This document shows positions 1 through 31,221 of a DNA stretch of 31,221 nucleotides, piece after piece. Under the pieces are notes generated by a model. The model saw only the letters and a program-made list of their open reading frames with translations. It made no database searches and was not told the DNA's origin. Origin of the DNA: an uncultured Planctomycetaceae bacterium (GTDB lineage: Bacteria; Planctomycetota; Planctomycetia; Pirellulales; Lacipirellulaceae); NCBI GenBank assembly GCA_964526975.1, contig CAZGMU010000006.1, forward strand, positions 1,211 through 32,431, in the 5' to 3' direction. The translations under genes and the position numbers were made by a program. Each line of letters begins with the position of its first letter. The first letter of the stretch is position 1.

Positions 1-1361
1 CCGTAAAACGCGGCGGTGATGCCGCCCGCCGCGAAGACCGACCACAGAAAGTGGGTGCCGTAAATATGGTTCCATTGATAAAGAAACACCAGCGAAACGA
101 ACGAACCAATGCACAGCAAGGTGTAAGTGATTCGCCGGCCCAACCAGTCGCCCGAAAACGCGGCGGCAATCGTGCCCACGATGGCGCCTAGCGCCGTGAA
201 TATTTGCGTATATTCTTTGGCGTAATATGGCCCGCCGTCAGCAGGCAATAGATCGGACAGTGAGATCGCCCATTTGGAAGCCCATTGCAAGGATCCCCAG
301 GTCCCTAGAAGCGCGACACCGGCCAACGAAGCGCCCAACAGCAAGCGTCGGATGCATCGGCTGCGATCCCCTGGATCGAGCACACCGGCGATCTCAGCCC
401 GTTCCAAATATCGACCGACGGGATAGAGGAATCCGACGAGCGCGACGACAAGTCCAACCGCGGAACCTGCGGTGCGAACGAGCTTGGCCCACGCGGGAAG
501 CGTGCTGACCTCAGCGGCCGCTTGCCTGATCGCCCATTCGTCGAACATCGGAGACCACAAAAAAACGACCGCCGCGGCGCCGATCGCACCGATTAAAACA
601 CCCAGCAAGTCACGGGTGGCCCAATGAGACGTGGCGCCTTTGTCGCGCTCCGCTTCCCATTTATGCGACTCGGGAACCAGCATCATGACGAAGAAGACGA
701 GCAGGGCCGGCAGAGCGCCAATGATCATCATCAAGCGCCAGCCATCATGCCGCAAAAGCTGTTCGACCAGCGTTTCGGACAGGCCAATTGCTTGCAGCAT
801 GTTGCCAATAGTCGTGATAAAACTCAAGAGCGACAAACTGATCAGACCGACGAACAAATAGCCGACGTTTGCGGCGGCGCCGATGAGACCGGCCAGAAAT
901 GCGCGCGAACGGTCGGACCACAACTCGATGACCAGCGATACGCCGAGCGCCCACTCGCCGCCCATGCCGAGCGAAGCGATGAATCGCAACACGGCAATGT
1001 GCCAGGCCTCGGTTGCAAAGCCGCACAAACCGGTGAACACGGCATAGGTGAGAATGCTCAATGACATGGCGCGCACGCGGCCGAGGCGATCGCCCATCCA
1101 GCCGAACACGACGCCGCCGGTCGCCGCGCCGATCAGGAACATCGCCATGATGACGGCGAACCAACCGGTCACATTAATGGGAACTTGGGCAGCCGTGCCT
1201 GCTTGCGCCTGCGCTTGCGTCTGGAGCAACTCGCCGAGCGCCTTTGGCCCAACCAGGGGAAACATCCCCATCTCAAAACCATCGAACAACCAACCCAAGA
1301 GCGCGGCCGCCAAGGCCATCCACTTGCCGCGATCGCCGTTTATTGCTGAAGAATTAACCAC
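1..1361 (-). CDS. MFS transporter, partial (3' end runs off the window edge)
   Basis: Manual minus-strand translation gives ...RGKWMALAAALLGWLFDGFEMGMFPLVG (TM1) and ...GTHFLWSVFAAGGITAAFYG at the window edge. It is missing from the ORF track, probably because no stop falls inside the window. The start is uncertain (GTG 1361/1370/1379 or ATG 1319). Confidence 0.85.
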   Translation of the reverse strand, partial: MVNSSAINGDRGKWMALAAALLGWLFDGFEMGMFPLVGPKALGELLQTQAQAQAGTAAQVPINVTGWFAVIMAMFLIGAATGGVVFGWMGDRLGRVRAMSLSILTYAVFTGLCGFATEAWHIAVLRFIASLGMGGEWALGVSLVIELWSDRSRAFLAGLIGAAANVGYLFVGLISLSLLSFITTIGNMLQAIGLSETLVEQLLRHDGWRLMMIIGALPALLVFFVMMLVPESHKWEAERDKGATSHWATRDLLGVLIGAIGAAAVVFLWSPMFDEWAIRQAAAEVSTLPAWAKLVRTAGSAVGLVVALVGFLYPVGRYLERAEIAGVLDPGDRSRCIRRLLLGASLAGVALLGTWGSLQWASKWAISLSDLLPADGGPYYAKEYTQIFTALGAIVGTIAAAFSGDWLGRRITYTLLCIGSFVSLVFLYQWNHIYGTHFLWSVFAAGGITAAFY

Positions 1362-1903
1362 AGAGGACACAGAGTTCACCGAGGAAGAAGAATGCGAATC
1401 GTACGGGTTCAGAATCCATGATGACCCAATTCAATTTTATGCTCAATGATAAATGAGGGCGTCCGGGAATTTCGGGTGGCACGCTACGCCGTTAACCCTT
1501 TCAAAAGAGACTCACGCAGAGGCGCGAAGGCGCAGAGTAATGAATGGAACCACGAAGTACACGAAGATCACGAAGAAGGAAGAGAATGAGCAAGTCTTTT
1601 TTGCAGCCACTTCCAAGATTCTTTGTGTCCTTCGTGTCTTTGTGGTTCCATTCATTCTCCCCACTCTCCCCTGCGTCTCTGCGTGAGATCCTTTTAAAGT
1701 TAACAGCGTAGAGTGGCGCGCCCTGAGTCTTCGAAGGGTATGGAACTGCACAGTTCGGCGAACCACGCCCTTCCCAAAGCGTCAGGGCGTGCCACCCCTA
1801 CGTTTTCATTCCCGGCTGCCTCAATTATAAATGCGTTTCCCTTTCCAGTTTTTCGTCAATTCAAATCGGGGCTCTCTGTGCCCCCTGTGTTGTCTGTAGT
1901 TTA
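1356..1903. repeat. Multi-level nested palindromic repeat cluster
   Basis: Inverted arm pairs at 1356-1383/1872-1902, 1454-1470/1808-1823, 1474-1484/1787-1797, 1485-1496/1699-1710, 1511-1537/1666-1687 and 1542-1575/1621-1653. Confidence 0.8.
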
Positions 1904-1920: not shown

Positions 1921-4900
1921 TCACTTGCGTGTCGTCAGGTACTCAACGATGTCGAGAAACTCAGAGGGAGCGAGTGTGCTGGCCAAGTTCTCGGGCATGC
2001 TGCTCTGCTTGGTTTCGGCCATTTCATCGATGTCCTTGTTGGCAACCGTCTCTTGTTTACCTCCTGCTAGTAGGAGCGTCACCGAATCGTTCGTCTTGGA
2101 AAGAATAAAACCGACGAGAATTTTGCCGTCGTTCGTAATAATGTTCGTGGTCACATATTTCGCGTCCACTTTCTTACTGGGCTCGATGATCGACTCGACG
2201 ATGTCGTGCCGATTGAGCCGTTTACCGACGTCCGTAAGCTCGGGACCAAACGTATAGCCGGTTTTGCCGATCTTATGGCAACTGGCACAAACCCGGCCGA
2301 AGATGCGGGCGCCATTATCGGCGTTGCCGGAGAGTTTTTCGATATCGGCGTATGCCTTGGCTCGCTGCTTGCCTGAGATATCGGGATTCACAAGCGTTTT
2401 GATCTGGGCTTGTGCCAAGATCGACGGCGCTCGGCGCAGGAAATAACCGTGAATGTACTCGGTCGCCCGTTCATTGCCTGTCGTCAGCGAGCCATCTTCG
2501 AAAGCCGGCTTCCAGACTGGCTCGAGGGCGACAAGCGTGTGTTCGAGCGTGTAATCGATCCACGGATCGCTAGGAAAATCGAGCGAAGTGAGTGCGGCCT
2601 TGGCCGAGACGAGCGTAGGGAAAAAGCTGAGGCCGCGGATAGCTTCGAGGCGAACGCGTGGATTTACATCGCGAGCGCCGGTGGCAAGAAGCTGAACGGC
2701 GTTGGGGATGTAGTCCATTTCGTCGGCCACGAGGTGCATGGCCGCTGCCCGGGCGTTTGGTGTTTTGGATTTCAACACGTCGTTAAGCAAGTTGGGATTA
2801 ACGGCATGATGGCTTTGCAGAGCCCACAGCGCTTCGCAGCGGAGGCGATCGTACTCTGGATCATTTTTGTCAAGGCGGTCAACCCATTTTTTGACTGCCG
2901 CGGCTACCGCCGACCTTGGCCGATCCCGCAACTCGCGACGAGCACGGTAACGAGTGCGCAGCTCATAGGCACGGGTCTGTTCGAGAAGTTCGGTCTCGGT
3001 CTTGTCAAACTGAACAACTGGGTCCAGCAGCTTCTTATCCTTGTAGACCAGCCGATAAATTCTGCCGCGGAGATGGTCGCGGTTGGGATCGCGCTGGGAG
3101 TATTGCATGTGGCCGATGAGGGCGTTGCACCAATCGCCGAACCAAACCGCGCCGTCGGGGCCGACCTGCGGATCGACGGGGCGGAAGTTTTTGTCTTTGC
3201 TGACGAGCAGATCGTCGGGCTCTGGCTGTGCGTCGGGTTTTCCCTCGGGCGCAGGTTTCATCACGCGGCCGCCGACGAAGCCGGATTGCTGATCGTGAAC
3301 GTCGAACCGCGGAATGCCGTTCATATTGATCACGCACCCGTAGATGAACTGTCCCTGGACGTTGTCTGGAAACTGGCGAGTATAAAGAAACTCACTGCCA
3401 ACGCAGGGCCGCATACCCTGATTGTTGAACACGGGGTCGATTCCACGACGACCAGAAACTTCGGCGCCGGAAAGGGGCGAGTCCCAATGTTGTTGCGCAG
3501 TGGTGCCATCGCCGACGAAGCCCTGGCCCCATTGGTCGAACACATAGCACCAGGGGTTGCCATAACCGGGAGTCGAATAATGGCGCATCTTCAAGGTGCG
3601 CGGGTCGAAGATGTAGGCGCCAGAGGCATCGCGGCGGCGGAAGGGGCCCCAAGGGGTCTCGATCGTGGTGCTCATCGAGATGCCTTCGAGCGTGTGGAGC
3701 AGGCCGCCGTTGGAATACTCGCTCTTGCCCATGGCGTGATGAGTGTCGTCGCTGGCCGCGCCGTCCAAGAGATCGACCACGAGATCAGCTTTGTCGTCGC
3801 CGTCGGTATCTTTAATCCAGAGAAGGCGTGGTTGATCGGCAACCAGTACGCCGCCGTTCCAAAATTCGAAGCCGGTCGGACAATGGAGCTTATCGTAGAA
3901 GACAGTACACTTGTCGGCCCGGCCGTCGTGATCGGCATCTTCCAGAATGAGGAGCCGATCATTGGGCCTCGGATTGCCCGGCTTCCATTGAGGGTAGGTG
4001 GGCATGCAACAAACCCACAATCGACCGCGGTTGTCGAAGCTAAGCTGGTCCGGCTTGGCAAGTTCAGGGAACTCGCGCTCGCTGGCAAAGGGTTGCACCT
4101 CGAAGCCGTCTGGCACCTGCATCGACCTGGCCGATTCTTCAGGCGTGAGATATTTCAGCTCGGCCGGTTCGGAATAATGCTGCTGTGGATTGCCGAAACG
4201 CGTAAGTGGAACAATCAGATCGCCAGTTTTATCATCGTTTGGCGGCGAAGGTGATTTCCCTTGGGCAAGATCCCAAATATAGCGATCGCGCACGTCGGTC
4301 ATCGCCCGAATCTTCTTGTATTCGCGTGGGAAGGTTTCTGTATCCCACGTGCGGCGACCGCCGTAAACATACCAGCCGTTGAGCATGCGGTAGTCTTGCT
4401 GGTGAATCCAGGACTTGTCGTTGACGGCCTCGCGAATGGCTTGAAAGGGGCCTTCCAAATTTGCTTTAGAGGAGTTGCCAAACAATGCATCGCACAGCAG
4501 CCGTCCGACTTCGCGATCGCCGGCTTCGTTGAGGTGACAACCGTTGATCGTGTATTGCATGCCCGGCTTGTCGGTGAACAGCAGTTCGGTCGGCGCGAAG
4601 AGATCGACATACGCCAGGCCACGCTCGCGAGCCACCTTTTCGACGACTGCCGCGTGGCGCCGCAGGTCATTATTTCGCTTGCTGGCTTCGGGCCACAATG
4701 GATTATCGGTTGGCTCCCAGGCGATCGGAGAAATCAGAACGAATCGCGGTGGCTTGCCATTGGCTCGCGGGTATTGCTGGGCCATTTCGTCGAGATATTT
4801 GCCATAGGCCGCACGAAACTGATCTTCACCGGCAACACTGGCGAACGACTCATTGAAACCGAAGAAGCAAAGGAAGGTGTCGGCCCCGAAGACCTTCAAC

Positions 4901-5262
4901 GGATCGTCCAGAGTGGTGTAACTATTGGGACGTTGGCGGTTGTCGACCGCGTCGCAAGGCCAGCCGAAGTTGCGGATCACAAGCTCTTCTTGGGGAAACC
5001 GCATATGGAGCATCGACTCGAAGTTGCCGAACAGATTCATCCGTTCGGCGAGTGAGCCACCGACGAACGCGATTCGCTCATGGGGCATGAACCGCAGCGG
5101 GAGCTTGCTGGCAGGCAAGTTGCCTGAAATCGATTTCGCAGGGGACTCGCCTTCGGAAGGCGTTCCCGGTTTGGCAGATGGCGTGGCCGCATAGACAACG
5201 GCCACGGCGAGCAGCAAAACGCAAAGACTAGAAACCAGCTCCGATTTGATCGATTTCATCAT
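1921..5262 (-). CDS. PVC-type heme-binding CxxCH protein (SGNH-like domain, dehydrogenase-like beta-propeller, HEAT repeats, C-terminal cytochrome c)
   Basis: Signal peptide MMKSIKSELVSSLCVLLLAVAVVYA; SGNH-like blocks (IAFVGGSLAE, RNFGWP, CHLN); FASE..PELAKP..FDNRGRLWV propeller; CASCHKIG heme motif followed by GPELTDVG and SSMP. Start set at 5262 (ORF track 5400). Confidence 0.9.
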   Translation of the reverse strand: MMKSIKSELVSSLCVLLLAVAVVYAATPSAKPGTPSEGESPAKSISGNLPASKLPLRFMPHERIAFVGGSLAERMNLFGNFESMLHMRFPQEELVIRNFGWPCDAVDNRQRPNSYTTLDDPLKVFGADTFLCFFGFNESFASVAGEDQFRAAYGKYLDEMAQQYPRANGKPPRFVLISPIAWEPTDNPLWPEASKRNNDLRRHAAVVEKVARERGLAYVDLFAPTELLFTDKPGMQYTINGCHLNEAGDREVGRLLCDALFGNSSKANLEGPFQAIREAVNDKSWIHQQDYRMLNGWYVYGGRRTWDTETFPREYKKIRAMTDVRDRYIWDLAQGKSPSPPNDDKTGDLIVPLTRFGNPQQHYSEPAELKYLTPEESARSMQVPDGFEVQPFASEREFPELAKPDQLSFDNRGRLWVCCMPTYPQWKPGNPRPNDRLLILEDADHDGRADKCTVFYDKLHCPTGFEFWNGGVLVADQPRLLWIKDTDGDDKADLVVDLLDGAASDDTHHAMGKSEYSNGGLLHTLEGISMSTTIETPWGPFRRRDASGAYIFDPRTLKMRHYSTPGYGNPWCYVFDQWGQGFVGDGTTAQQHWDSPLSGAEVSGRRGIDPVFNNQGMRPCVGSEFLYTRQFPDNVQGQFIYGCVINMNGIPRFDVHDQQSGFVGGRVMKPAPEGKPDAQPEPDDLLVSKDKNFRPVDPQVGPDGAVWFGDWCNALIGHMQYSQRDPNRDHLRGRIYRLVYKDKKLLDPVVQFDKTETELLEQTRAYELRTRYRARRELRDRPRSAVAAAVKKWVDRLDKNDPEYDRLRCEALWALQSHHAVNPNLLNDVLKSKTPNARAAAMHLVADEMDYIPNAVQLLATGARDVNPRVRLEAIRGLSFFPTLVSAKAALTSLDFPSDPWIDYTLEHTLVALEPVWKPAFEDGSLTTGNERATEYIHGYFLRRAPSILAQAQIKTLVNPDISGKQRAKAYADIEKLSGNADNGARIFGRVCASCHKIGKTGYTFGPELTDVGKRLNRHDIVESIIEPSKKVDAKYVTTNIITNDGKILVGFILSKTNDSVTLLLAGGKQETVANKDIDEMAETKQSSMPENLASTLAPSEFLDIVEYLTTRK

Positions 5263-5415
5263 ATTCCGCCGATGGATGGTTCGCAAAACACATGCCGTTA
5301 TCTTATCGCGAATCGGAAGAAATGTCTGTAAGCTTTCTAATACCGGTCTTCGGCTTTGGCTGATACTTGACTTGCTGAGTAATCTCACGCGGCGAATCAT
5401 TCGCCTGCAAGTTCA

Positions 5416-5549
5416 ATGAGGGTGTCCGGAAATTCCGGGTGGCACGCCCTGACGCTTTGGGAAGGGCGTGATCCGCCGAATGGTACGCTCCACGCCCTTC
5501 GAAGCCTCAGAGCGTGCCACCCATAAGCTCGAATTCCGGAAACCTTCAG
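5416..5549. repeat. REP doublet (GGGTGGCACGCCCTGA family) inside a TGAGGGTGTCCGGAAATTC outer palindrome
   Basis: gggtggcacgccctgacgctttgggaagggcgtg (5438-5470) is the exact reverse complement of 1764-1797. The outer arm 5417-5435 pairs with 5531-5548. Bases 5416-5447 nearly match 1453-1484. Confidence 0.85.
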
Positions 5550-7049: not shown

Positions 7050-8507
7050 CTACGCCAAGATTTCTTTGATGACGTGGGCGGGAAGAACGCCGGTCAGCTT
7101 CTGGTCGAGGCCTTGGCTCTTGAACGAGAAGCGCTCATGGTCGAAGCCAAGCTGGTGGAGCACGGTCGCGTGGAAATCACGAACGTGGACCGGGTCTTTG
7201 GTGATGTTGTAGGAGAAATCATCGGTCTCGCCGAGGACCGTGCCTCCCTTGAAGCCGCCGCCCGCCATCCACATCGTGAAGCAGCGCGGATGATGATCGC
7301 GGCCGTAGTTCTGCATCGAGAGACCGCCTTGCGAATAGACCGTGCGGCCGAACTCGCCGCCCCAGACGATCAGCGTGTCGTCGAGCATGCCGCGCTGCTT
7401 GAGGTCTTCGATCAGCGCGTGGCAAGGTTGATCGACGTCTTTGCATTGCATCGGCAAGCGGCCGGCAACATTACCGTGCGTGTCCCAGTTGTTGTGGTAA
7501 ATCTGCACGAAACGAACACCGCGCTCAACCATCCGGCGAGCAAGCAAGGCGGTGTTGGCGAAGGTACCAGGGTTCTTCGCCTCGTCGCTGTAGAGCTTGA
7601 ATGTCGATTCGGGCTCGCTGGCGATATCGGTCAGTTCGGGAACGCTGGCCTGCATGCGGTAGGCGAGTTCGTACTGTTGGATACGCGTTTGGGTTTGGGG
7701 ATCGCCGAGTTGCTGATAATTCAGTTCGTTGAGCGCGTTGAGGCCGTCGATGCTGGCGCGGCGGACATCGCGCGAAACGCCGGGAGGATCGTTTATGTAG
7801 AGGATCGGGTCGCCGGCCGTTCGCAGGCTGACGCCAGCGTGCGTGCCGGGCAGGAAGCCGCTCGACCACAGCCGAGCGGAAATCGCCTGCACTTGCTCGG
7901 TGTTCGAGCTTTTGGCAACCATGACGACGAATGTCGGCAGGTTGTCGTTCAGCGAGCCCAGGCCGTAGGAAGCCCAGGCGCCCAGGCAAGGGCGACCCGT
8001 GATCTGGTTGCCGCTCTGCATGAGCGTGATCGCCGGCTCGTGGTTGATCGCCTCGGTGTGCATGCTGCGGATGAAGACGATGTCGTTGACCGACTTTTTC
8101 AGATAGGGCAACAACTCGCTGATCCACATCCCCGATTGGCCACATTGCTCGAAACGGTACATCGACGGAGCGATCGGGAAGCGAGCCTGGCCGCTGGTCA
8201 TGGTCGTGAGCCGCTGGCCGTTACGGATCGACTCGGGCAGGTCCTTGTCGTACCAGTCGCGCATAACAGGCTTGTAATCGAAAAGGTCCATCTGCGACGG
8301 ACCGCCAACCATGTGCAGATAGATGATCTGCTTAGCCTTGGGCGCGAAATGGGTATGGGGCAGAGGCGGTTCAGCGTCGGCAGCCAAGCTGCTGGCGAAC
8401 GACCTCGCAGAGAGCGAAGCCAACGCGGCGCCACCCAACAAATGAGAACCCGCCGAGAGGAAGAAACGGCGCGATACCTGTTGACGAAATTCTTCGAATG
8501 GGCTCAT
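7050..8507 (-). CDS. DUF1501 domain protein (alkaline phosphatase/sulfatase-like, Tat signal)
   Basis: SRRFFL twin-arginine leader; KAKQIIYLHMVGGPSQMDLFD, HTEAINHEPA, LARRMVERGVRFVQ, GGEFGRT, GRDHHP, VHVRDFHATVLHQLG. Confidence 0.93.
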   Translation of the reverse strand: MSPFEEFRQQVSRRFFLSAGSHLLGGAALASLSARSFASSLAADAEPPLPHTHFAPKAKQIIYLHMVGGPSQMDLFDYKPVMRDWYDKDLPESIRNGQRLTTMTSGQARFPIAPSMYRFEQCGQSGMWISELLPYLKKSVNDIVFIRSMHTEAINHEPAITLMQSGNQITGRPCLGAWASYGLGSLNDNLPTFVVMVAKSSNTEQVQAISARLWSSGFLPGTHAGVSLRTAGDPILYINDPPGVSRDVRRASIDGLNALNELNYQQLGDPQTQTRIQQYELAYRMQASVPELTDIASEPESTFKLYSDEAKNPGTFANTALLARRMVERGVRFVQIYHNNWDTHGNVAGRLPMQCKDVDQPCHALIEDLKQRGMLDDTLIVWGGEFGRTVYSQGGLSMQNYGRDHHPRCFTMWMAGGGFKGGTVLGETDDFSYNITKDPVHVRDFHATVLHQLGFDHERFSFKSQGLDQKLTGVLPAHVIKEILA

Positions 8508-8547: not shown

Positions 8548-11500
8548 TTACTTATTCAATACTTCGTCGAGGTTCATTAGCTCGTTGGCAACCATCGTCC
8601 AGGCGGCTAACTGCGACACGGGCAGCTTCGGCTCGGCCTTCGACTCGCCAACGGCAATGAGCTTCTGGGCTTCTTCGCCTTGTGCAGCATAATGCTTTTC
8701 GAACTTTTCGAGCGACCCCCGAACGATTGCCAACTCTTCCGGATGCAGCGGCCTCGCTAACAACCGTTCGGCCATGAAGTTCAATCGTTTGTCCTGATCA
8801 GCACTCGAATCGATGGCCCGTTGGGCCAGATTGCGAGCGGCCTCGATGAATTGCGGATCGTTGAGCGTCACGAGCGCCTGTAACGGTGTGTTCGTACGTT
8901 CGCGGATCACGACACACGCCTCGCGGGTCGGGGCGTTGAATATATCCATCGACGCCGGAGGCGCGGAACGCTTCCAAAACGTGTACATGCTGCGGCGGTA
9001 GAGCGATTCACCGGCGTCTTGCTTGTAATCGCGGGTATTGCTACCAATCATTGCGACAGCTTCCCATACACCTGCCGGCTGATAGGGCTTCACGCTCGGG
9101 CCGCCGATCTTCTCGGAGAGAAGGCCGCTGGCGGAGAGGGCGTAGTCGCGCACCATCTCGGCATCCATGCGAAACCGAGGGCCACGAGAGAGCAAGCGGT
9201 TTTCGGGGTCCTTTTCGAGCTTCTCCTTAGTCACAATCGCACTCTGGCGATACGTGGCCGACATGACCATCAGCTTGAACAGCTTCTTCACGTCCCAGCC
9301 TGACTCGCGGAACTCGACAGCGAGCCAATCGAGTAATTCGGGGTGCGAAGGCAACTCGCCGGAGACGCCAAAATCACCTGCCGAGCGGACTAGCCCCGTG
9401 CCAAACAGTTCGCTCCACAGGCGATTCACCGTGACACGAGCGGTCAGCGGATGCTCGGGACGGAGCAACCACTTGGCCAATCCCAAGCGATTGTGTGGCA
9501 AATCGGCGGGGAAGGGTGGCAGCATCGAGGGCGTGCCCGGCGAAACCTGATCCTTGCGCTGATCGTATTCCCCACGATTGAGAACGAAAGCGATCGGCGC
9601 TTCGGGCTTCTCTTGCATTACGTAACCGGTCGTGGAGCGGGCTTGAATATCAGCCTGCTCGCGGGTGAGATCGTCCCGATTTTTCGAGAGCTCCTGGTAC
9701 TGATCATCGCGGGTAGTAAGCCACCATTCATATAGACTGTCGACATCGGCGGGGCTGCGTTTCTCGGGCGGGGCCGCAACGACCGCCGCGAGCGCCGACC
9801 GGGCCAACGAGGCTACGTCCCCATCGGTCAAGCGGCGCGAGTAAACGCGGACATCTTGAATCGACGCCCCCGTGAGTGGTGATGTGTTGTCCCGCTGGCC
9901 AATTTTGAATGGCACGGTGGTGCGAATCGAATCGGTCAACGAGTCGGCCTGCACGTTCGTGGGCTGCGATTTGCCGTTTACATAGACGCGCACCCCGGCA
10001 GCCTTCTTCGTGCCATCGTACGTAATCGCGATGTGTGTCCACTGATCGGCGGGAAGCTGTTCCGCCGTCACCACCTTGAGCGCGTTGGCAGGCCATTGGC
10101 TGATGATGTGCGCCCCAACGCGGCGTCCCTCGACCCACAGGTCGTAGCCGCGGAAATTGTCGTTGTCGTTCATCCGGGCAAGGATCGCGCCGGAGCCGTC
10201 GTTCGCGGGAAGTTTTACCCACGCCGAATAGGAGAATTGCTGAGTCGAATCGAAATCTCCCGCTTCGGGCACAACCAGCACCGCGCCTTGATTCACGTAG
10301 GCAGCCTTCGCGTCAGTTCGGCCAGGACGCCATTCGACTGTAGAGGGCAGCGGTTTTTCGGCATGCTGGCCGCGCAGATCATAGCCAACCGCGGCGGCGC
10401 CATCATTGAGCGGAACGAGCAGTTCGAGTTCGGAAGTCGGCATTTCCCCGGCAATATCTTGCGGCTTCGCCTGAGCAAGCCAGGAATCGAACTCCTTGCG
10501 AGCATCTCGTCGCCGGTCGTCGACCAACTTCTTCGACTCCGGCAGGAGCTTGCTCAACTGCTCGAGCCGGGACGCATCGTCTTTTTGCGGGACCATCACG
10601 ATCGGCGGCGTGTCCTTGATGTTGCCGTCCATCGGTTTCTGCGTGGTATTGTTGAAAAACGCGGCGAGCTCGTAGAACTCCTTCTGCGTCATCGGATCGA
10701 ACTTGTGGTCATGGCACACGGCGCAACCCGTCGTAAGGCCCAGCCACACCTTCGATGTCGTTTCGACACGATCGCGCGTGTAAAGAACCTGGTACTCTTC
10801 GTCGATCGCGCCACCTTCGCTCGTCGTGATATTGCAGCGATTGAAGCCGGAGCCGAGCTTTTGTTCGAGCGTGGCATTCGGCAACAGGTCGCCGGCCAGG
10901 TTCTCGATCGTGAACTCGTCGAACGGCATGTTCTTATTCAGCGCATCGATGACCCAATCGCGATACGACCACATCTCACGATAGTTGTCGATGTGGATAC
11001 CGTGGGTATCGCCATAGCGAGCCGCGTCGAGCCAGTACCGGCCACGGTGCTCGCCCCACTTGGGCGATGCCATTAGCTTGTCGATCAGGCGCTCGTAGGC
11101 GTCTGGCTTGTCGTCTTTGACAAACTCCTCAACAGCATCGGGCGCCGGCGGCAGCCCGATCAGATCAAGGCTCACGCGGCGAGCCAGCGTCCGGCGATCG
11201 GCTTCGGGAGCAGGGGTGAGACCGGCTGACTGGAGCTTTTCCGCAACGAAGTTGTCGACTGGATTGTGAGCCCAGCCATTTCCCGCGGCGCTTGGCACAG
11301 GCGGCCTGACCGGCGCGATCAACGACCAATGCGGCTGATACTTGGCTCCGCTCTTGATCCAATCCGCCAGGAGTTTCTTTTGAGAATCGGTAAGCTGCTT
11401 CTTCGTTTCGGGCGGCGGCATTTGCTCCGACTCATCGTCCGATAAAATACGCCGCACCATTTCGCTGGCATCGGCGTCCCCCGGGACAATGGCCGCCATA

Positions 11501-11990: not shown

Positions 11991-13790
11991 TTGCATCGAC
12001 TTTTTTTAGCCCTGATTTGCCTACTGTTTTCTCAAACCAAGCTGACGGCCGAGACGCCACAAGAATTGCGGGTTGGGCGAGCTGGGCATGCGTTTGACCA
12101 TCTGGGCAGCATCGGCTTGCAAGCCGAGACGGCTGCGGCGAGCGGGTCGACCATTATCTACGCCAGCGGTATCGGCGATGCAGGTTATCAAGGTTTGCCC
12201 GCCGCTGCCGATTTCGACCAGCTCCGAAAAAATGTCGGCGAATACAGTCGCCGGGCAAAGGAATTGGGAATCGAACTGAACATTGGATACGTTTGCGCGA
12301 CTTCGATAGTGAACATCGATCAGTTCGACAAGAACTGGAGCGATGAGTTTCGCGCACAATTCAAAACACAACCGCACGAATGGCTGCAGGTCGACCGCGC
12401 TGGCAAGCCTCTCGCGTCGTGGTACGGCGGCAGCTACAGCCCAGCCTGCATGAACAACCCGGACTGGCGCGCCTACGAGCGTGCAATCGTTCGATACCAA
12501 ATCGAGACGGGTCACGACGGCATCTTTTTTGACAATCCCACCGTCCATCCACAAGGCTGCTACTGCACACACTGCATGCAACGCTTTGCCAGGTATCTGG
12601 AAAACGAAGCAGAGCCAGACAAGTTGCAACTTCCTGATGGCGTGGAAGCTGTCCGCAAACTTGCGGATTCGCGCTCCGAAGATTTCCTGCGATTCCGTGG
12701 CACGATTGCTCGCGATTTTATGAAAGAAATGCGCGCTTTCGCGCGAAACATTCATCCACGAGCGGTGATTACCTGCAACAACAGCCTTAACTCGCCGGAC
12801 GTTTTTTATTCACAATGCCGAATGTATGGCTACAACATCGACGAGATGAGCAAGACGGAAGACCTCGTCGTGGTGGAAGACATGAATTCGCAACCGCGCA
12901 TGGAAGCCAACGGGCAAACGATTGAGTATGGTTCGACCTACAAGCTCCTGCACAGCATTAATCACGGGAAGCCGATCGTGGCAGTCACCATCGCTGGCGG
13001 AGACTACCATACACCTCCCAATCTCATGCGACTCGCAATGGCCGAGGCAGCGGCACATGGCATCTCTTATTTGGCGTGGCCGACGTGGCCCGAAGAGCAG
13101 CGGCAGCGAATGATCGCCGCGATTCGACCCCAGGCAGACCTCTTGCGTCAGAATGAAGAGATATTGAACGAAGCGCCCTTTCGGGTGGATGCCGCATTGC
13201 ACTCGCCCTTTCATCGATGGACAAAAACGGAGCAATGTGGAACGAGCGCAATAGCAGCGGCGCTGACGAAAGAAAACATCCAATATCGAGTGGTTGCCGA
13301 ATCCGAATTGGCCGATTTTGCGAAACTTAAGAAACGGCCCCCGCTGATCGTGGAATCACGGTCCATGCTCTCGGCCAGCGAGGAGACGACTATTGCCGCA
13401 ATTGAGAAGAGCTCCGGAGTCATTGCGGCGGATCGGGCAGACTGGATACAGCTTCTGAAGGATAGAATCACGAAGCCGTCTATTACCATCGGAGGTGCGC
13501 CAAATGTTCGCGCGGTCGTCCACGATCAGCGTGATCGAACGATCGTCCATCTCTATAACTTAGGGATTCAGCGGTTATCTTCATTCGAAGAAAAGATAAC
13601 CCCGGCCACGGACATTGCAATCCTGGTTCGAGCGGAGAGCCCTATTCGACATGTTCGGCTGCTCACGGCCGACAAGCAGGGAACAGCAGGTGAACTCCGA
13701 TTTCGAACGACGGCAGAAGGTGAGAAAACCGCAGTTTCCGTAACGATTCCCCGATTGGACGTCAGCGCGCTCATGCTTATCGAACCCTGA
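11991..13790 (+). CDS. Putative secreted glycoside hydrolase-like protein (TIM barrel plus beta-galactosidase-trimerisation-like domain)
   Basis: TTG start after an AAGGA RBS gives a signal peptide (LHRLFLALICLLFSQTKLTA). CMNNPDWRAY, DGIFFDNP and CYCTHC..F resemble GH42/GHL-type proteins. The family cannot be assigned by eye. Confidence 0.6.
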   Translation: MHRLFLALICLLFSQTKLTAETPQELRVGRAGHAFDHLGSIGLQAETAAASGSTIIYASGIGDAGYQGLPAAADFDQLRKNVGEYSRRAKELGIELNIGYVCATSIVNIDQFDKNWSDEFRAQFKTQPHEWLQVDRAGKPLASWYGGSYSPACMNNPDWRAYERAIVRYQIETGHDGIFFDNPTVHPQGCYCTHCMQRFARYLENEAEPDKLQLPDGVEAVRKLADSRSEDFLRFRGTIARDFMKEMRAFARNIHPRAVITCNNSLNSPDVFYSQCRMYGYNIDEMSKTEDLVVVEDMNSQPRMEANGQTIEYGSTYKLLHSINHGKPIVAVTIAGGDYHTPPNLMRLAMAEAAAHGISYLAWPTWPEEQRQRMIAAIRPQADLLRQNEEILNEAPFRVDAALHSPFHRWTKTEQCGTSAIAAALTKENIQYRVVAESELADFAKLKKRPPLIVESRSMLSASEETTIAAIEKSSGVIAADRADWIQLLKDRITKPSITIGGAPNVRAVVHDQRDRTIVHLYNLGIQRLSSFEEKITPATDIAILVRAESPIRHVRLLTADKQGTAGELRFRTTAEGEKTAVSVTIPRLDVSALMLIEP

Positions 13791-15612: not shown

Positions 15613-15807
15613 GCCTCCATCAAGCAGTCTTGAACTCGAATTTCCGATGCAGCCGAATTACATGCCCCAGGGTTAGACGTCCAAAAACACAAAAGACTTA
15701 GCGTCGGCCGCCAGGCCGAATCCCCCACCAACTCGGCTCCCACGAGCCAAAAAACGAATCCCTCCTAATAAAACCTTCCCGCGCTCAACAAGAGAAAGCA
15801 ACCACAG

Positions 15808-17196: not shown

Positions 17197-17344
17197 CCGC
17201 CCCACCTTCGTAGCACCCGACGCCGCCAACCCTTTCCCAATACTGCGCCTGCATTGGCATTAAACAACGACGCGAGCCCACGCGAGCCGGGGCGTCCTCG
17301 CCCCCGCCCAATCGTGCTCATTACCAATGAAAGCCTCAACAATA

Positions 17345-17457
17345 AGCAATCGCGGATAAACGCAGATGGACGCAGATAGAAGACAAATGAAGACCATCCG
17401 CCACTACATCATCGATTGGAAACAATCTGCGTTTATCCGCGTTTATCCGCGGTTGCT
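17345..17457. repeat. Palindromic element, CGCGGATAAACGCAGAT family
   Basis: Arm 17345-17377 is the near-perfect inverse of arm 17425-17457. Confidence 0.85.
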
Positions 17458-17551
17458 TTGCAAAAAAGGTTAACGGCGTAGGGTGCAACTAATTTCCGGA
17501 AGAACCAATTTTGAAAGTGGCTGCCAAAAGACCTGCTCATTCCTCCTTTTC

Positions 17552-17624
17552 TTCTTTGTGATCTTCGTGCCTTGGTGGTAAAAAAATCCCTCTCCTCCGC
17601 GCCTCTGCGCCTCTGCGTGAGATC
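17552..17624. repeat. Right half of the composite CACGAAG/CTCACGCAGAG element
   Basis: ctttgtgatcttcgtgccttggtggt followed by ctccgcgcctctgcgcctctgcgtgagatc, in the same order as 1621-1690. No left arms were seen. Confidence 0.65.
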
Positions 17625-17770
17625 TTTTTCAGGTTTTTACCGCAGGAACCGAGGGCTAGCGCCCTGCGGCTAATTTCTTGAATTCGTCGGCGGCTGCGTC
17701 TGTCGGCAAAAGTGCTGACTTTACCTTCCCCACGATCGGGCTATATTAAAGCAATTCACCTTGATAAATA

Positions 17771-17858
17771 GCCACAGAGGACACCGAGTTCACAGAGAGT
17801 TAATCAAGGAGAGCCTGTTCTCTAGAGGCTCTCCGTGAACTCGGTGTCCTCTGTGGTT
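17771..17858. repeat. Palindromic element, CCACAGAGGACAC family
   Basis: A 28-bp inverted repeat with one mismatch (ccacagaggacaccgagttcacagagag / ctctccgtgaactcggtgtcctctgtgg). The same arm type occurs at 1356, 28586 and 30944. Confidence 0.9.
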
Positions 17859-19669: not shown

Positions 19670-19850
19670 AGTTTGCCTCTCGTCAAATAATCACTCGATT
19701 GAAAACGGCGCGGTAATTGGAGCCGATAAAAGCTTTCGGCTTTCGGCTGTCGGCTATCGGCCAGAAAGCAAGTAGGCCAATCGCTGCGCAGTCTTCAATA
19801 AACCGCCTGGCAATAATCTACCACCGGGGCCGTCTTGCTGTCTCCACCCT

Positions 19851-20011
19851 CTCACGCAGAGGCGCAGAGTAAGGAATGGAACCACAAAGGCACGAAGGAC
19901 ACGAAGAAGAAAGAGGGATGAGCAGGTCTTTTTTACAGTTACTTTCAAAATTTTTCGTGTCTTTGTGGCTCCATTCATTCTTGTCTTTGCGTCTTCGCGC
20001 CTTTGCGTGAG
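19851..20011. repeat. Composite two-level palindromic element (copy 2)
   Basis: Outer ctcacgcagagg...ctttgcgtgag arms, inner gaatggaaccac...gtggctccattc arms, and a loop similar to 1576-1620. Confidence 0.88.
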
Positions 20012-20350
20012 ATTATCTTTCGTCCAAGCCAACCGCGGATCACTGGCGCCTTTTACTTGGCGGCTTGGCGGTTCCATTTGTTAGAGGCATTTAGTAGGTG
20101 CAAAACGTTCCAGTGGTGCGGTTTGTACCTGGCGGCGCTTAAGTCCTTGGGCGCGTTGTATTTGTTATGGGAAGGGCTTCTCGTGTCGGTATAAAACGTA
20201 CCAAATTGCTGGCGTTTCGTTGCGCCGTGAGGTTGTGATCGCGGTTCGTTGTAACTCTGTGTTGACATTGGATGTTACGACAAAGTTATTTATCGCGTGC
20301 TCGTTTGGCATTCGCTTCGCTTTAGAGCGGCTTAACGCGTGCTTCGCTGG

Positions 20351-20378
20351 TTGGCAGACAAGAATGTCTGCCCCACGG
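20351..20378 (+). repeat. REP TTGGCAGACAAGAATGTCTGCCCCACGG
   Basis: Identical 28-mer at 27554-27581; internal palindrome ggcagaca/tgtctgcc. Confidence 0.9.
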
Positions 20379-20395
20379 CGCGATGGGAGTCGCTC

Positions 20396-20881: not shown

Positions 20882-20996
20882 TGACGGTGGAGAGGGGGGG
20901 TGGTTTGCGGTGAGCAAGCTCACCGGCTAATTGACGCAAAGAATACGCTTTTCTCGGTTACGACCAAATCAACGCAACGTTTTAAGGAGTACGCTC

Positions 20997-21236
20997 ATGA
21001 TCGCATCTTATACGGACTCTTCTCGCTACGAACCGCAATTCGACGAAGCGCTTGACGCTGATCGGTTCGAAAGATTCTCTCATCGCCGTGGCGGCGACTT
21101 TCCGGTTCGTTCTCATTCGTCTCGCACGCGCGCCAAGATGCGCGGCCGGGCGACTCCCGCGGCGCGCAATAAGTCTCGCTCGTTCAACGGCTCGAATCGC
21201 CGTGGGCGGGGCAAACAGTGGGCGGCTGCTTACTAG
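20997..21236 (+). CDS. Small hypothetical protein (79 aa), acidic N-terminus and very basic C-terminus
   Basis: Strong AAGGAG RBS before ATG 20997; ends FNGSNRRGRGKQWAAAY. Confidence 0.6.
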   Translation: MIASYTDSSRYEPQFDEALDADRFERFSHRRGGDFPVRSHSSRTRAKMRGRATPAARNKSRSFNGSNRRGRGKQWAAAY

Positions 21237-21257
21237 CCGATGCTTTCGATGTCTGTG

Positions 21258-21319
21258 GCTGAATTCGCAAGAATTCGAATGTTTTCCGGATTTGTCTGAA
21301 TTCTGGTGAATTCAGCTAC
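21258..21319. repeat. REP doublet, GCTGAATTCGCCAGAATTCG family
   Basis: gctgaattcgcaagaattcg...ctgaattctggtgaattcagctac. Same family at 27469-27528 and 28517-28543. Confidence 0.85.
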
Positions 21320-21369
21320 ATCGGTGATGGGTATTGAAAGTACGTCCTTTTTCACAGGAGTTGGAAAAT

Positions 21370-25587: not shown

Positions 25588-25621
25588 TGGGCAACACGCA
25601 ATTACGTAAGTCCTAAAAGAT

Positions 25622-25805
25622 CTCACGCAAAGGCGCGAAGGCGCAAAGAATACGAATTCATTTACCATTAAGTACACCAAGATCACGAAGAAAGAAAAGG
25701 AATAGGCAGAAGGTGTTGCAGCCACTTCAAAGGCACTTTGTGCCCCTCGTGCCCCTTGGTGGTTCAATTCATTCTTTACTTTGCGCCTTCGCGCCTTTGC
25801 GTGAG
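25622..25805. repeat. Composite two-level palindromic element (copy 3)
   Basis: Outer ctcacgcaaaggcgcgaaggcgcaaag / ctttgcgccttcgcgcctttgcgtgag arms; inner caccaagatcacgaag arms; loop shares ttgcagccacttc with copy 1. Confidence 0.88.
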
Positions 25806-26043
25806 ACTTCCCCTTGGTTGGGAGAAGGCTGGGGCGAGGGTGCCTTGTAGAGTTCCTTAGATAAGGTTAACGGCATAGAGTTAGTCTGTGATTGTTGTGA
25901 GAGATCCGAGGGAAGGAACTGACGGACTGGAGTCCGTTCCACGAAAGAATGGCCGGTTATGACGGCTGGAGTGTCGCGTGGGACGGAAATGGGCCGATTT
26001 CGGCCGGGGAATCGGGTTAATCGGCAGCGAGTGTGGAGTTTGC

Positions 26044-27419: not shown

Positions 27420-27422
27420 GGC

Positions 27423-27447
27423 ACTGCTTCTCTCGTATAGAAGCAGT
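27423..27447 (+). terminator. Possible intrinsic terminator hairpin
   Basis: Perfect 9-bp stem actgcttct/agaagcagt directly after the stop. The T-rich tract is offset by about 10 nt. Confidence 0.4.
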
Positions 27448-27468
27448 TGAGCGCTGCTTTCTTTTGTC

Positions 27469-27581
27469 GCTGAATTCGCCAGAATTCGGCCATCCAGCAA
27501 CACGTCCGAATTCTTGCGAATTCAACTATGGAGGTTGAGCTTGCTTGCGGAATTTGGCAGACAAGAATGTCTGCCCCACGG
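27469..27581. repeat. GAATTC-family REP doublet followed by a GGCAGACA REP
   Basis: 27469-27528 matches 21258-21319; 27554-27581 is identical to 20351-20378. Confidence 0.85.
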
Positions 27582-27626
27582 GGCCTGTGGCACTTGGTTG
27601 CCTGTCTGGCATACAATTACGTCGTC

Positions 27627-28514: not shown

Positions 28515-28516
28515 GA

Positions 28517-28778
28517 GTAGCTGAATTCCCCAGAATTCGGACGCGGTCGGAATGGCTCTTTAAAATGTTTCGGCAATTAGGATTCACCACAGAGGCACAG
28601 AGCACACGGAGAAGAGGAGGACAGGCAGAAGAACACTAATCGCCGCTGATCTACGCTAATCAATCAGAATTAAGAAGGAGATCGAGTTCGCCTCTTGTTC
28701 GATAGTTGAGATTAGCGGGGATTAGTGAAGATTAGTGTTCCTAAATCTCTTCTCCGTGCCCTCTGTGTCTCTGTGGTT
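28517..28778. repeat. Single GAATTC-family REP plus a two-level nested palindrome
   Basis: REP at 28517-28543; outer accacagaggcacagag arms at 28586 and 28778; inner aacactaat arms at 28632-28661 and 28710-28739. Confidence 0.85.
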
Positions 28779-28863
28779 ATTCTGAAAACCGAAGATTGCT
28801 ATTGAGTGTTGAGTCGGTCCACGGCGAATGTTCTGTTTTTGCTTGCACCACGGGAGAAGAGAA

Positions 28864-30804: not shown

Positions 30805-30876
30805 GTCATTCCCGCGTAGGCGGGAATCCAGATTGTTTTGTGCCTGAGGCTAGGTTCCCGCCTGCGCGGGAATGAC
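30805..30876. repeat. REP doublet, GTCATTCCCGCG..GCGGGAATCC type
   Basis: gtcattcccgcgtaggcgggaatccag...ctaggttcccgcctgcgcgggaatgac; the same motif class as the Neisseria dRS3 repeat. Confidence 0.85.
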
Positions 30877-30943
30877 GCTCGGAAACGAGTCCGAAACGCA
30901 TAGCTAAGGAACGACTCAATCATAACTTCCCCATTTCCGGAAT

Positions 30944-31221
30944 AACCACGGAGACACGGAGGGCACGGAGAAGAAAGTGAAGAGCATCTAACAAAATGAA
31001 TGAAACCGCCAAGAACACCAAGCAATTCACGGCTGATTTCTGTCATCCTGCGTACTTTGCGACTTGGCGGTTCAATTGTTAGCCGCATTAAGGAGGATAG
31101 GACCACTAATCTTCACTGATCCCCGCTAATATCAGTAATCAAAGAAGGAGACTATCTTTTACCTCATGCGTAGATTCGTGGCGATTCGTGTTCTTCTGCC
31201 TCTATTTCTGTCTTCTCTGTG
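30944..31221. repeat. Nested palindrome cluster, truncated by the window end
   Basis: Outer aaccacggagacacggag arm (30944), AACCGCCAAG element (30990-31080), and a cactaatcttcac arm (about 31103-31130) matching the inverse of 28710-28739. Confidence 0.8.

Follow-up and report, generated by a model that had tools for sequence, protein, structure and literature searches.

The bacterial interspersed mosaic elements (BIMEs) of Escherichia coli are built of alternating Y and Z repetitive extragenic palindromic (REP) sequences joined by fixed linker motifs (L, S, l and r). In Planctomyces limnophilus, REPs reading GGGTGGCACGTCCCTGAGGTCTTCCGAAGGGCGTGGT and GTGGCACGCTCTGAGGTCCTCCGAAGGGCGTGGT, with the foot GTGG, are neighbours of the TnpA_Y1 gene ADG68653.1, of subclass 2.6 (Quentin et al. 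2018, Table S1; PMC6006769), and REP dimers nested in longer palindromes are known from cyanobacteria, from Chloroflexi and from Halothiobacillus (A. variabilis GTAG-15, T. roseum GTAG-23 and H. neapolitanus CGTC-1; PMC3733652). Some insertion sequences take REPs as their targets, namely ISPsy8, ISPa11, ISPpu9, ISPpu10, ISRm22 and ISRm19 (Tobes and Pareja 2006, PMC1525189); of these, ISPpu9 belongs to the IS110 family (PMC12288879). Duplications of about 10 bp, or roughly one helix turn, are the hallmark of the IS4 family, in which IS231 is target-specific (De Palmenaer et al. 2008, PMC2266710). Here we describe a compound palindrome at positions 1356-1903 of a 31,221-nucleotide stretch of planctomycete DNA (hereafter the window), which was probably built by non-coding hairpin repeats inserting into one another within an intergenic spacer.

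The preliminary description of this locus had reported six concentric pairs of inverted arms from different motif families. The concentric inverted repeats are real and all of the arm pairs are present: level 1 (1356-1387/1866-1903; 24 nt, 79% complementary), level 2 (1456-1473/1798-1819; a 13-nt core, 85%), level 3 as then listed (1474-1484/1787-1797; 11/11), level 4 (1485-1497/1698-1710; 11/13), level 5 (1500-1525/1673-1698; 26 nt, 81%) and level 6 (1539-1577/1619-1656; 34/38). They surround a central loop, placed at 1578-1618 by the predicted fold, whose sequence is common to copies at 19908-19950 and 25700-25730. The 561-nt region was predicted to fold at -120.7 kcal/mol as single-stranded DNA, compared with -70.0 +/- 6.0 for dinucleotide shuffles (z -8.5); the RNA of its minus strand gave -245.6 against -170.2 for shuffled sequences (z -11.9). 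The levels do not, however, represent six different families. Levels 1, 5 and 6 are of one design, with arms of tandem 7-nt units C-R-C-N-R-A-G, and levels 5 and 6 recur jointly as one element in three further window copies. The left arm of level 3 (1474-1484) is a duplicated 11-nt REP foot and no true arm, the true level-3 pair being 1711-1744/1763-1797. The nest consists of three or four mobile or modular units, not of six independent families.

Judged by its sequence, each true level-3 arm is one REP, because foot and stem match the REP strings published for P. limnophilus ADG68653.1 (foot GTGG or GGGTGG, stem CACGCYCT...AGGGCGTG; PMC6006769), and the pair forms an inverted dimer of the REPIN type (a REP doublet forming a hairpin). 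The REP, with foot GTGG and stem CACGCCCT/AGGGCGTG, is found at 1711-1744, 1763-1797 (reverse complement), 5435-5470 and 5489-5522. In the nest, the plus-strand copy (1711-1744) begins with the 11 nt GAGTGGCGCGC, followed by the stem CGCGCCCT/AGGGTATG, and is separated by a spacer (1745-1762) from the minus-strand copy (1763-1797; reverse complement GGGTGGCACGCCCTGACGCTTTGGGAAGGGCGTGG), which is 95% identical to 5437-5480 in reverse orientation. To assess how widespread this REP is, the arm 15-mer GGTGGCACGCYCTGA was scanned for across 596 Gb, with one genome per species, giving at least 120 stretches. Among the 120 matches listed, about 85 were metagenome-assembled genomes (MAGs) of Planctomycetota (Thermoguttaceae, Pirellula, Lacipirellulaceae, Gemmataceae, Planctomycetaceae and Schlesneria); the remaining single 15-mer matches were taken as chance, around two thousand being expected in 596 Gb by our own arithmetic. 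Plus-then-minus arm pairs 60-130 nt apart numbered at least 29 (exact) or at least 52 (relaxed) among the matches listed, and the latter comprised 49 in Planctomycetota MAGs of several orders, two in the window and one in L149, the NCBI MAG GCA_964549545.1. Their consensus is GGTGGCACGCCCTGA - variable - GAAGGGCGTG - loop - CACGCCCTTC - variable - TCAGGGCGTGCCACC. The 31-kb window holds two dimers, and MAG MFD00731.bin.2.201 has at least six loci among the matches listed. No copy of this REP was found in 54 kb of the relatives L001 and L002, both syntenic with the window, and L148 (85%, 83% and 76% amino acid identity, respectively), nor in about 330 kb of more distant relatives, and its distribution is therefore patchy.

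Some further features of these dimers were seen. The window dimer is of two types, one arm having the loop GTCTTC and the other CGCTTTGG, and it is found nearly unchanged in MAGs labelled Planctomycetaceae (L116 4912-4991, L061 and L090); this recurrence points either to inheritance from long ago or to horizontal transfer of the dimer in one piece. In other Planctomycetota MAGs, REP-type ends bracket 150-560 bp of other sequence (L007 6661-7084, L122 4725-4881, L088 3821-4055 and L041 1222-1780), or the REP 5' end is duplicated beside a short insert (L088), so interrupted or extended REP dimers are not limited to this lineage. A CGTC-tagged REP dimer (cgtcattcccgcgcaggcgggaa type) occurs at window 30805-30876 and in L150 (4575-4650); this type belongs to the other REP super-family of Di Nocera et al. 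2013 (PMC3733652).

The age of the layers was assessed by comparison with orthologous spacers. These measure 230 bp in L001, 228 bp in L002 and 196, 191 and 92 bp in three other relatives, as against 598 bp in the window; two of the lengths (P0004 and P0011) were taken from gene tables, which come without spacer DNA. In L002, level-1 arms (ttaaccacgaagagcacaaaggtcacaaag ... ctttgtgatctctgtgtcctctgtggttaa) bracket a spacer of about 120 bp that is also conserved in L001. The 5' arm of the window (1356-1387), with units CACAGAG, CACAGAG and CACCGAG after an AACC foot, pairs with 1866-1889 and has a near-identical copy at L002 13517-13546 (96.7% over 30 nt), while the 3' arm (1866-1903) has its counterpart after the stop codon in L002 (13371-13395). 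The corresponding feature in L148 is a tandem array after the stop codon (13328-13352), on one side only. The same unit type occurs at window 17772-17856. L002 has no counterpart to window 1456-1819. With 1456-1833 removed, the window aligned end to end with the L002 spacer (206 identical positions in about 270 columns); this alignment was computed after excising the insert, as a MAFFT run containing it misplaced the L002 spacer. The insert is flanked by direct repeats, CTCAATGATAAATG at 1442-1455 and CTCAATTATAAATG at 1820-1833, identical at 13/14 positions, and the 14-mer is single-copy in L002 (reverse complement of catttacaattgag). A simple calculation puts the probability of 13/14 matches arising by chance at a fixed register at about 2 in 10 million. 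All four relatives with readable spacer DNA lack the 364-bp insert (1456-1819), and the spacers of two others are too short to hold it. Because L002 has the arms, lacks the insert and carries the 14-mer once, this sequence comparison shows the level-1 arms to be ancestral and the inner 364 bp to be a later insertion with a 14-bp target duplication. Empty sites in related genomes, which had been put forward as a check, were thus found in L002 and other relatives.

The 364-bp insert is composed of a 127-bp palindromic shell with the inverted REP dimer, interrupted by a 226-bp element, hereafter X. The shell is a CCGGRAAT-type palindrome with the REP dimer at its centre. Its left arm (1456-1473, AGGGCGTCCGGGAATTTC) pairs with 1808-1820 and is 91% identical to 5415-5447 in the same orientation; its right arm (1798-1819, CTACGTTTTCATTCCCGGCTGC) pairs with 1458-1470 and is 71% identical to the right shell at 5523-5545. 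Excision of 1485-1721 (237 bp) leaves a 127-bp element, the exact length of a second copy of shell plus dimer at 5419-5545, from which X is absent and which folds with a z of -9.5. This second locus (5416-5549) had been presented as an empty-site control for the nest. It does have the same shell and level-3 core with 237 bp fewer, but it is a paralogous copy, not an empty allele: the shell has the same orientation in both, whereas the REP core is flipped (74/89 positions identical as reverse complement versus 65/93 directly). Shell and dimer of 5419-5545 are absent from the orthologous spacers of L001 and L002. The shell was seen only around REP dimers in this lineage, in both window copies and in L149. 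A flanking palindrome as a general feature of this REP dimer was considered and rejected, a strong one being present in 1/52 dimers (those among the matches listed, the window and L149).

Element X (1485-1710) is 226 bp long and non-coding, bounded by the terminal inverted repeats (TIRs) TACGCCGTTAACC (1485-1497) and the reverse complement of AGTTAACAGCGTA (1698-1710), which match at 11/13 positions, and its cargo is a long heptad hairpin. It folds at -66.8 kcal/mol versus -23.6 for shuffles (z -13.6). On its left lies the REP foot and 5' half-stem GGGTGGCACGC (1474-1484, plus strand) and on its right the first 11 nt of the intact REP, GAGTGGCGCGC (1711-1721); the two agree at 9/11 positions and are in direct orientation, which excludes their being extended TIRs. 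The proposal that GTGGCACGC (1476-1484) and GTGGCGCGC (1713-1721) resemble a target duplication was well founded, as these strings are part of the 11-bp duplication, and a perfect 11-bp repeat of the same sequence is found in L149. The duplication is 9-11 bp long depending on where the boundary is drawn. An alternative reading of the junctions between X and REP with a GTAG foot was rejected, the copy at 5416 being without GTAG, and GTAG was treated as part of the X terminus (GGCGTAG).

The site in L149 lies in the spacer upstream of a rhomboid gene, whose protein is 92% identical (amino acids) to that of the window. It contains, in order, a REP dimer, TACGCCGTTAACC, a CGCAGAT-unit hairpin, GGGTTAACGGCGTA and GCGTGCCACCC. 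The last 11 nt of the REP dimer are repeated after the element, so that GCGTGCCACCC stands on both sides of it as a perfect direct repeat (11/11), and its TIRs (9732-9744/9884-9896) match at 13/13 positions. The orthologous window spacer (27420-27527, 108 bp) has neither insertion nor dimer. By its sequence this is an independent insertion at the same REP position, since the cargo differs, the other REP of the dimer is adjoined and the locus is a different one. A TIR-bounded element inserted at a fixed REP position with an 11-bp duplication is thus shown, from the sequences compared, in at least two independent cases. Of the seven junctions that could be read in the window and L149, six have a TACGCCGTTAACC-armed element adjoining the REP foot, with a match at 8-11 of 11 positions. 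A remnant of this arm/foot junction lies at window 17468-17490, beside a CGCAGAT-unit hairpin (17344-17458) homologous to the L149 cargo, and another was found in L016, a more distant Planctomycetia MAG. The TACGCCGTTAACC arm occurs four times in the window (0.19 expected), twice in L149 and once in L016. The elements that carry it are 165-226 bp long with TIRs of 13-17 bp and only short chance open reading frames (ORFs); they have the features of a MITE (a miniature transposable element with inverted repeats), namely TIRs, a target-site duplication, small size, no coding capacity and several copies.

Around these elements, some spacers differ between relatives. The armed D/A element at 25600-25881, a further copy of X, is missing from the orthologous L149 spacer (8001-8337), which has a different repeat, AGCGTCGGCCGCCAGGCCGAATCYCCCACCAAC, also present at window 15700-15745; the left flank of the 25600-25881 copy, GGGCAACACGC, is REP-foot-like though no REP is present. 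The cluster at 17344-17635 is rearranged: after the hairpin of CGCAGAT units come a single TACGCCGTTAACC arm, the decayed remains of a REP foot, an arm resembling the shell and the right half of a D/A element with a truncated arm at its end. It looks like the product of recombination between two nests. The rhomboid-upstream spacer carries three different hairpin-repeat sets in three relatives (window 27420-27527, L149 9625-10000 and L150 4536-4885), which indicates rapid turnover of hairpin elements at hot-spot spacers.

These comparisons show the following events. In the common ancestor with L002, an inverted pair of heptad-unit arms (level 1) already enclosed the conserved spacer of about 120 bp. 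A 364-bp block, of which the basic unit is the 127-bp shell plus REP dimer, then entered this spacer and duplicated 14 bp of target. The MITE-like element of 226 bp entered the REP foot and 5' half-stem between GGGTGGCACGC and CCTGA, duplicating 11 bp, either at this site or in a donor copy. The TACGCCGTTAACC-armed family probably recognises the REP foot as its target, and nesting would then be the direct result of target choice, one repeat being aimed at another. Since the duplication is about one helix turn long, we infer a staggered double-strand cut by a DDE-type transposase acting in trans, for which an IS4-like enzyme is the best guess, whereas the REP dimer was probably moved by a subclass 2.6 REP-associated tyrosine transposase (RAYT; an HUH tyrosine transposase). 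The REP dimer in the shell, the inner hairpin in the D arms of level 5 and the D hairpin in the arms that we label C would be separable modules recombining between loci and genomes. The suggestion that the elements of the nest preferentially insert into one another holds for at least one family, the TACGCCGTTAACC-armed one, at the REP foot. It does not extend to six insertions of six families, because the comparison needs only one block insertion and one insertion into a REP, perhaps in the donor.

That last point bears on whether the entire 364-bp nest was pre-assembled elsewhere and arrived by a single transposition, with no stepwise nesting at this locus, which we regard as unlikely but worth serious attention. 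Compared with L002, the inner 364 bp form a single block, flanked by a single pair of 14-bp repeats; this site does not reveal when in the sequence of events, or where, X was inserted; and shell and REP dimer always occur together in this lineage. Such a history would change only the place of the second insertion, since X must still have entered a REP somewhere. That event is required by the 11-bp duplication inside the nest, by the paralogue with its uninterrupted 127 bp and by the independent insertion in L149, which adjoins the other REP and has other cargo.

Several observations weigh against construction of the nest by insertion of repeats into one another. A Pfam search with 20 ORFs detected neither a transposase nor a RAYT gene in the window, which also lacks the GIY-YIG and PD-(D/E)XK genes that, together with HUH genes, had been suggested as partners. 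None was found in about 0.8 Mb of planctomycete DNA around REP copies either, and the enzymes are thus inferred. When the 1869 ORFs lying within 1.5 kb of REP arms were clustered all against all, no protein family recurred near the REP; regular expressions for HUH/Y motifs had 0 matches in ORFs near REP arms, and tblastn of the REP loci with E. coli TnpA_REP (query checked against 4ER8) returned only noise. RAYT-type movement is not known to produce target duplications, which sits badly with a shell-plus-dimer unit flanked by one, and 14 bp is an unusual length for such a duplication, being long. The shell never occurred without a REP dimer in the data examined, L149 included, and what suggests that the REP dimer was inserted into the shell is solely the flipped orientation and the shell-less dimers elsewhere. 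The target rule is drawn from few junction sets (four to five), and the X copy at 25600-25881 has no recognisable REP on its right side. For the heptad hairpins, whose mobility is putative, neither a target duplication nor an empty site was seen in the genomes compared.

Heptad hairpins make up the innermost layers, levels 5 and 6. The 5' side of the D arm (1508-1537, CTCACGCAGAGGCGCGAAGGCGCAGAG, with units CGCAGAG/CGCGAAG) pairs with its 3' side (1668-1692), and within it the inner hairpin has a 5' arm (1539-1577) of AATGAATGGAACC and CACGAAG units, opposite the 3' arm at 1619-1656. Further D arms were found in the window (19851, 19997, 25622, 25791 and 17607), in L148 (20912/21068) and in L002 (18558/18616). 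Levels 5 and 6 with the same loop are repeated at 19848-20014 and 25619-25808, with a half copy at 17526-17635, and the inner hairpin and loop lie within D arms at 19875-19980 and 25664-25775 as well. In an alignment of the three full copies, 72 predicted pairs are kept, four of them through double changes. L002 18556-18632 is a plain D hairpin, and in the orthologous L148 spacer (20900-21100) the D arms surround a different inner hairpin with CGCTAAT units, so the D arms can be separated from what they enclose. The window has 15 arms in which C-R-C-N-R-A-G units follow one another at a spacing of 8-10 nt, and such arms are also present in Pirellulales, Planctomycetaceae and Gemmataceae MAGs. 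Recurrence of the arms of the nest independently of one another, as anticipated for mobile repeats, was thus observed both at other window loci and in other genomes.

These hairpins raise the possibility that the layers grew in place by replication slippage, template switching and hairpin-templated correction, with no mobile elements. The heptad units are alike within a hairpin and different between hairpins, a one-sided tandem array in L148 takes the place of the arm seen in the window and L002, and heptad hairpins persist at orthologous sites with no target duplication seen for them. For the heptad arms alone, growth in place is possible. As an account of the whole nest it is improbable: the sequences of the inner 364 bp reappear, 85-96% identical, both at unlinked loci and in further genomes, and they are flanked by target duplications. 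Insertion of repeats into one another remains our preferred account of these inner layers.

Other nests of unit-repeat hairpins occur in the window. One, at 28581-28782, has a 130-nt loop containing a hairpin of CTAATC-type units (28616-28755), and the loop is closed by heptad arms of 36 nt (86% complementary) made of CACAGAG/CACGGAG units; L149 retains part of this nest (10990-11150), with decay of the right outer arm. In another, cut by the window end (30939-31221), an outer arm of CACGGAG units is followed by an inner hairpin of CGCCAAG units (about 31010-31077) and by an arm of CTAATC units. Hairpins with arms of two GAATTC-containing units (GCTGAATTCGCAAGAATTCG), at window 21254-21320, 27469-27526 and 28516-28540, L150 5805-5865 and L149 10931, constitute another unit-repeat family, located downstream of genes.

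The nest occupies a 598-bp intergenic spacer that runs from the 3' end of the gene at 1921-5400 to the 5' end of an MFS transporter gene. Both genes are on the minus strand, the MFS gene starting near 1322 and extending past the window edge, and the other encoding a 1112-1159-aa PVC-type GDSL/DUF7133/haem-binding protein. Relatives of the latter protein carry the labels Lacipirellulaceae, Pirellulales or Bythopirellula and the remaining window genes are typically planctomycete; the organism is an uncultured Pirellulales (Lacipirellulaceae-like) planctomycete. A metagenome scan for relatives of the 1112-aa protein returned none above 73% identity. No sigma-70 promoter was found in the spacer. 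Within the 3' level-1 arm, just 3' of the 1921-5400 gene, GGGGC..GCCCC forms a small local hairpin (1868-1884) that is terminator-like, with a T-rich run after it on the minus strand. Elsewhere in the window, a 31-nt motif, TTGGCAGACAAGAATGTCTGCCCCACGG, occurs at 20351-20381 and 27554-27584, and in L149 at 3285 and 9961, with copies 97% alike. It forms the hairpin GGCAGAC-aagaat-GTCTGCC with ATG in its loop, at or just before the start codons of unrelated genes (the rhomboid start is at 27567), and may be a shared leader or translational control element.

The position of the nest between a stop codon and the next start, the very stable predicted RNA structure and the terminator-like hairpin would all suit a structured RNA or regulatory element under selection, serving either the MFS gene or the 3' end of the upstream gene, such as a terminator, riboswitch-like leader or small RNA. 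We consider this very improbable. No Rfam family reached the gathering threshold anywhere in the window, and permissive Rfam scans of both loci gave only eukaryotic miRNA-precursor matches far below the cut-off, as generic hairpins do. The insert is also missing from the relatives described above, and unrelated genes have the same pieces in their spacers, in one orientation or the other. An effect on the host is a separate matter: the insert interrupts a conserved region upstream of the MFS gene, and the very stable hairpin predicted between both genes may act as a terminator, insulator or RNA stabiliser. Finally, a fold-back or chimeric join is scarcely credible even though the contig that holds the window is metagenomic and about 32 kb long, assemblies often break at repeats and L149 stops 285 bp after the rhomboid gene, since the arms are imperfect (79-95%) and not exact copies, both flanks are colinear with orthologous loci, and the independently assembled L149 has the same kind of nest with the same junction.

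How far does this locus go beyond what has been described? The REP layer, REP dimers in longer palindromes and REP-targeting insertion sequences are already known. Level 3 is, like a REPIN, an inverted dimer with feet outward; it is intergenic, apparently multi-copy and spread widely in Planctomycetota. Here the dimer is enclosed by an extra palindromic shell, and the shell-plus-dimer unit has a 14-bp duplication. The link to a RAYT is drawn from the P. limnophilus data (PMC6006769), no RAYT being tied to this genome. The class 3 TnpA_Y1 'CnGA-foot' structures of the same Table S1 were also considered and bear no likeness to any layer. The claim that the layering exceeds the REPIN/BIME model is borne out in part: level 3 is an ordinary REP inverted dimer, and nested dimers (PMC3733652) and REP-targeting insertion sequences (PMC1525189) had already been reported. 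As in those nested dimers and the BIME mosaics, the REP dimer of this locus is enclosed by another inverted repeat, unrelated to it, and the whole is pieced together from short motifs within a spacer. The locus differs from the former in its further layers, an element within the REP and an older hairpin outside, and in the orthologous empty sites that date the insertions. Sequences and architecture differ from those of E. coli BIMEs, and the two are alike merely as mosaics.

Insertion sequences of the IS110 family are not known to make a duplication, and REP-targeting ones of the IS3 family duplicate 3-4 bp. With REP-targeting insertion sequences X has in common that a mobile element sits at a fixed REP position, but X is non-coding (about 150-226 bp across its family), has TIRs and comes with an 11-bp duplication. 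With MITEs and the IS4 family (IS231 and its non-autonomous derivatives) it shares short TIRs, a lack of coding capacity, a duplication of about one helix turn, a specific target and variable cargo. Unlike IS231 and ISH8, its termini read TACG or CTACG, not CAT, its cargo is heptad hairpins, not genes, and no autonomous partner was found in the DNA examined. IS4-family elements have 5'-CA or CAT ends and a DDE transposase with a YREK motif; the length of the duplication fits this family and the ends do not. An IS4-type origin is best taken as a lead, not a test. In the literature searched for planctomycete MITEs or REPs only two general surveys turned up, and it contained no description of a small non-coding, TIR-bounded element that targets a REP foot with an 11-bp duplication and exchangeable hairpins, or of heptad-unit hairpins.

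More tentatively, and with somewhat less than even confidence, we suggest that planctomycetes carry an as yet undescribed modular hairpin-repeat system. It would comprise a REP-specific non-autonomous carrier, with TACGCCGTTAACC ends, an 11-bp duplication at the REP foot and interchangeable hairpin cargo, and phylum-wide C-R-C-N-R-A-G heptad hairpins, the purine-rich arm always 5', which would be retained at orthologous sites and provide shells into which other repeats insert. On this view, target rules that direct repeats at each other would regularly yield palindromes of the Russian-doll type.

The use of one repeat family as the landing site of another gives a concrete reason for long compound hairpins in bacterial spacers. 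The list of REP 'users', so far insertion sequences, would gain a small non-coding element with swappable hairpin cargo, and one REP type is common to several orders of Planctomycetota, where heptad-unit hairpins form a widespread repeat class. Nests of this kind break assemblies, can mislead predictions of RNA structure and terminators, and may alter the expression of neighbouring genes.

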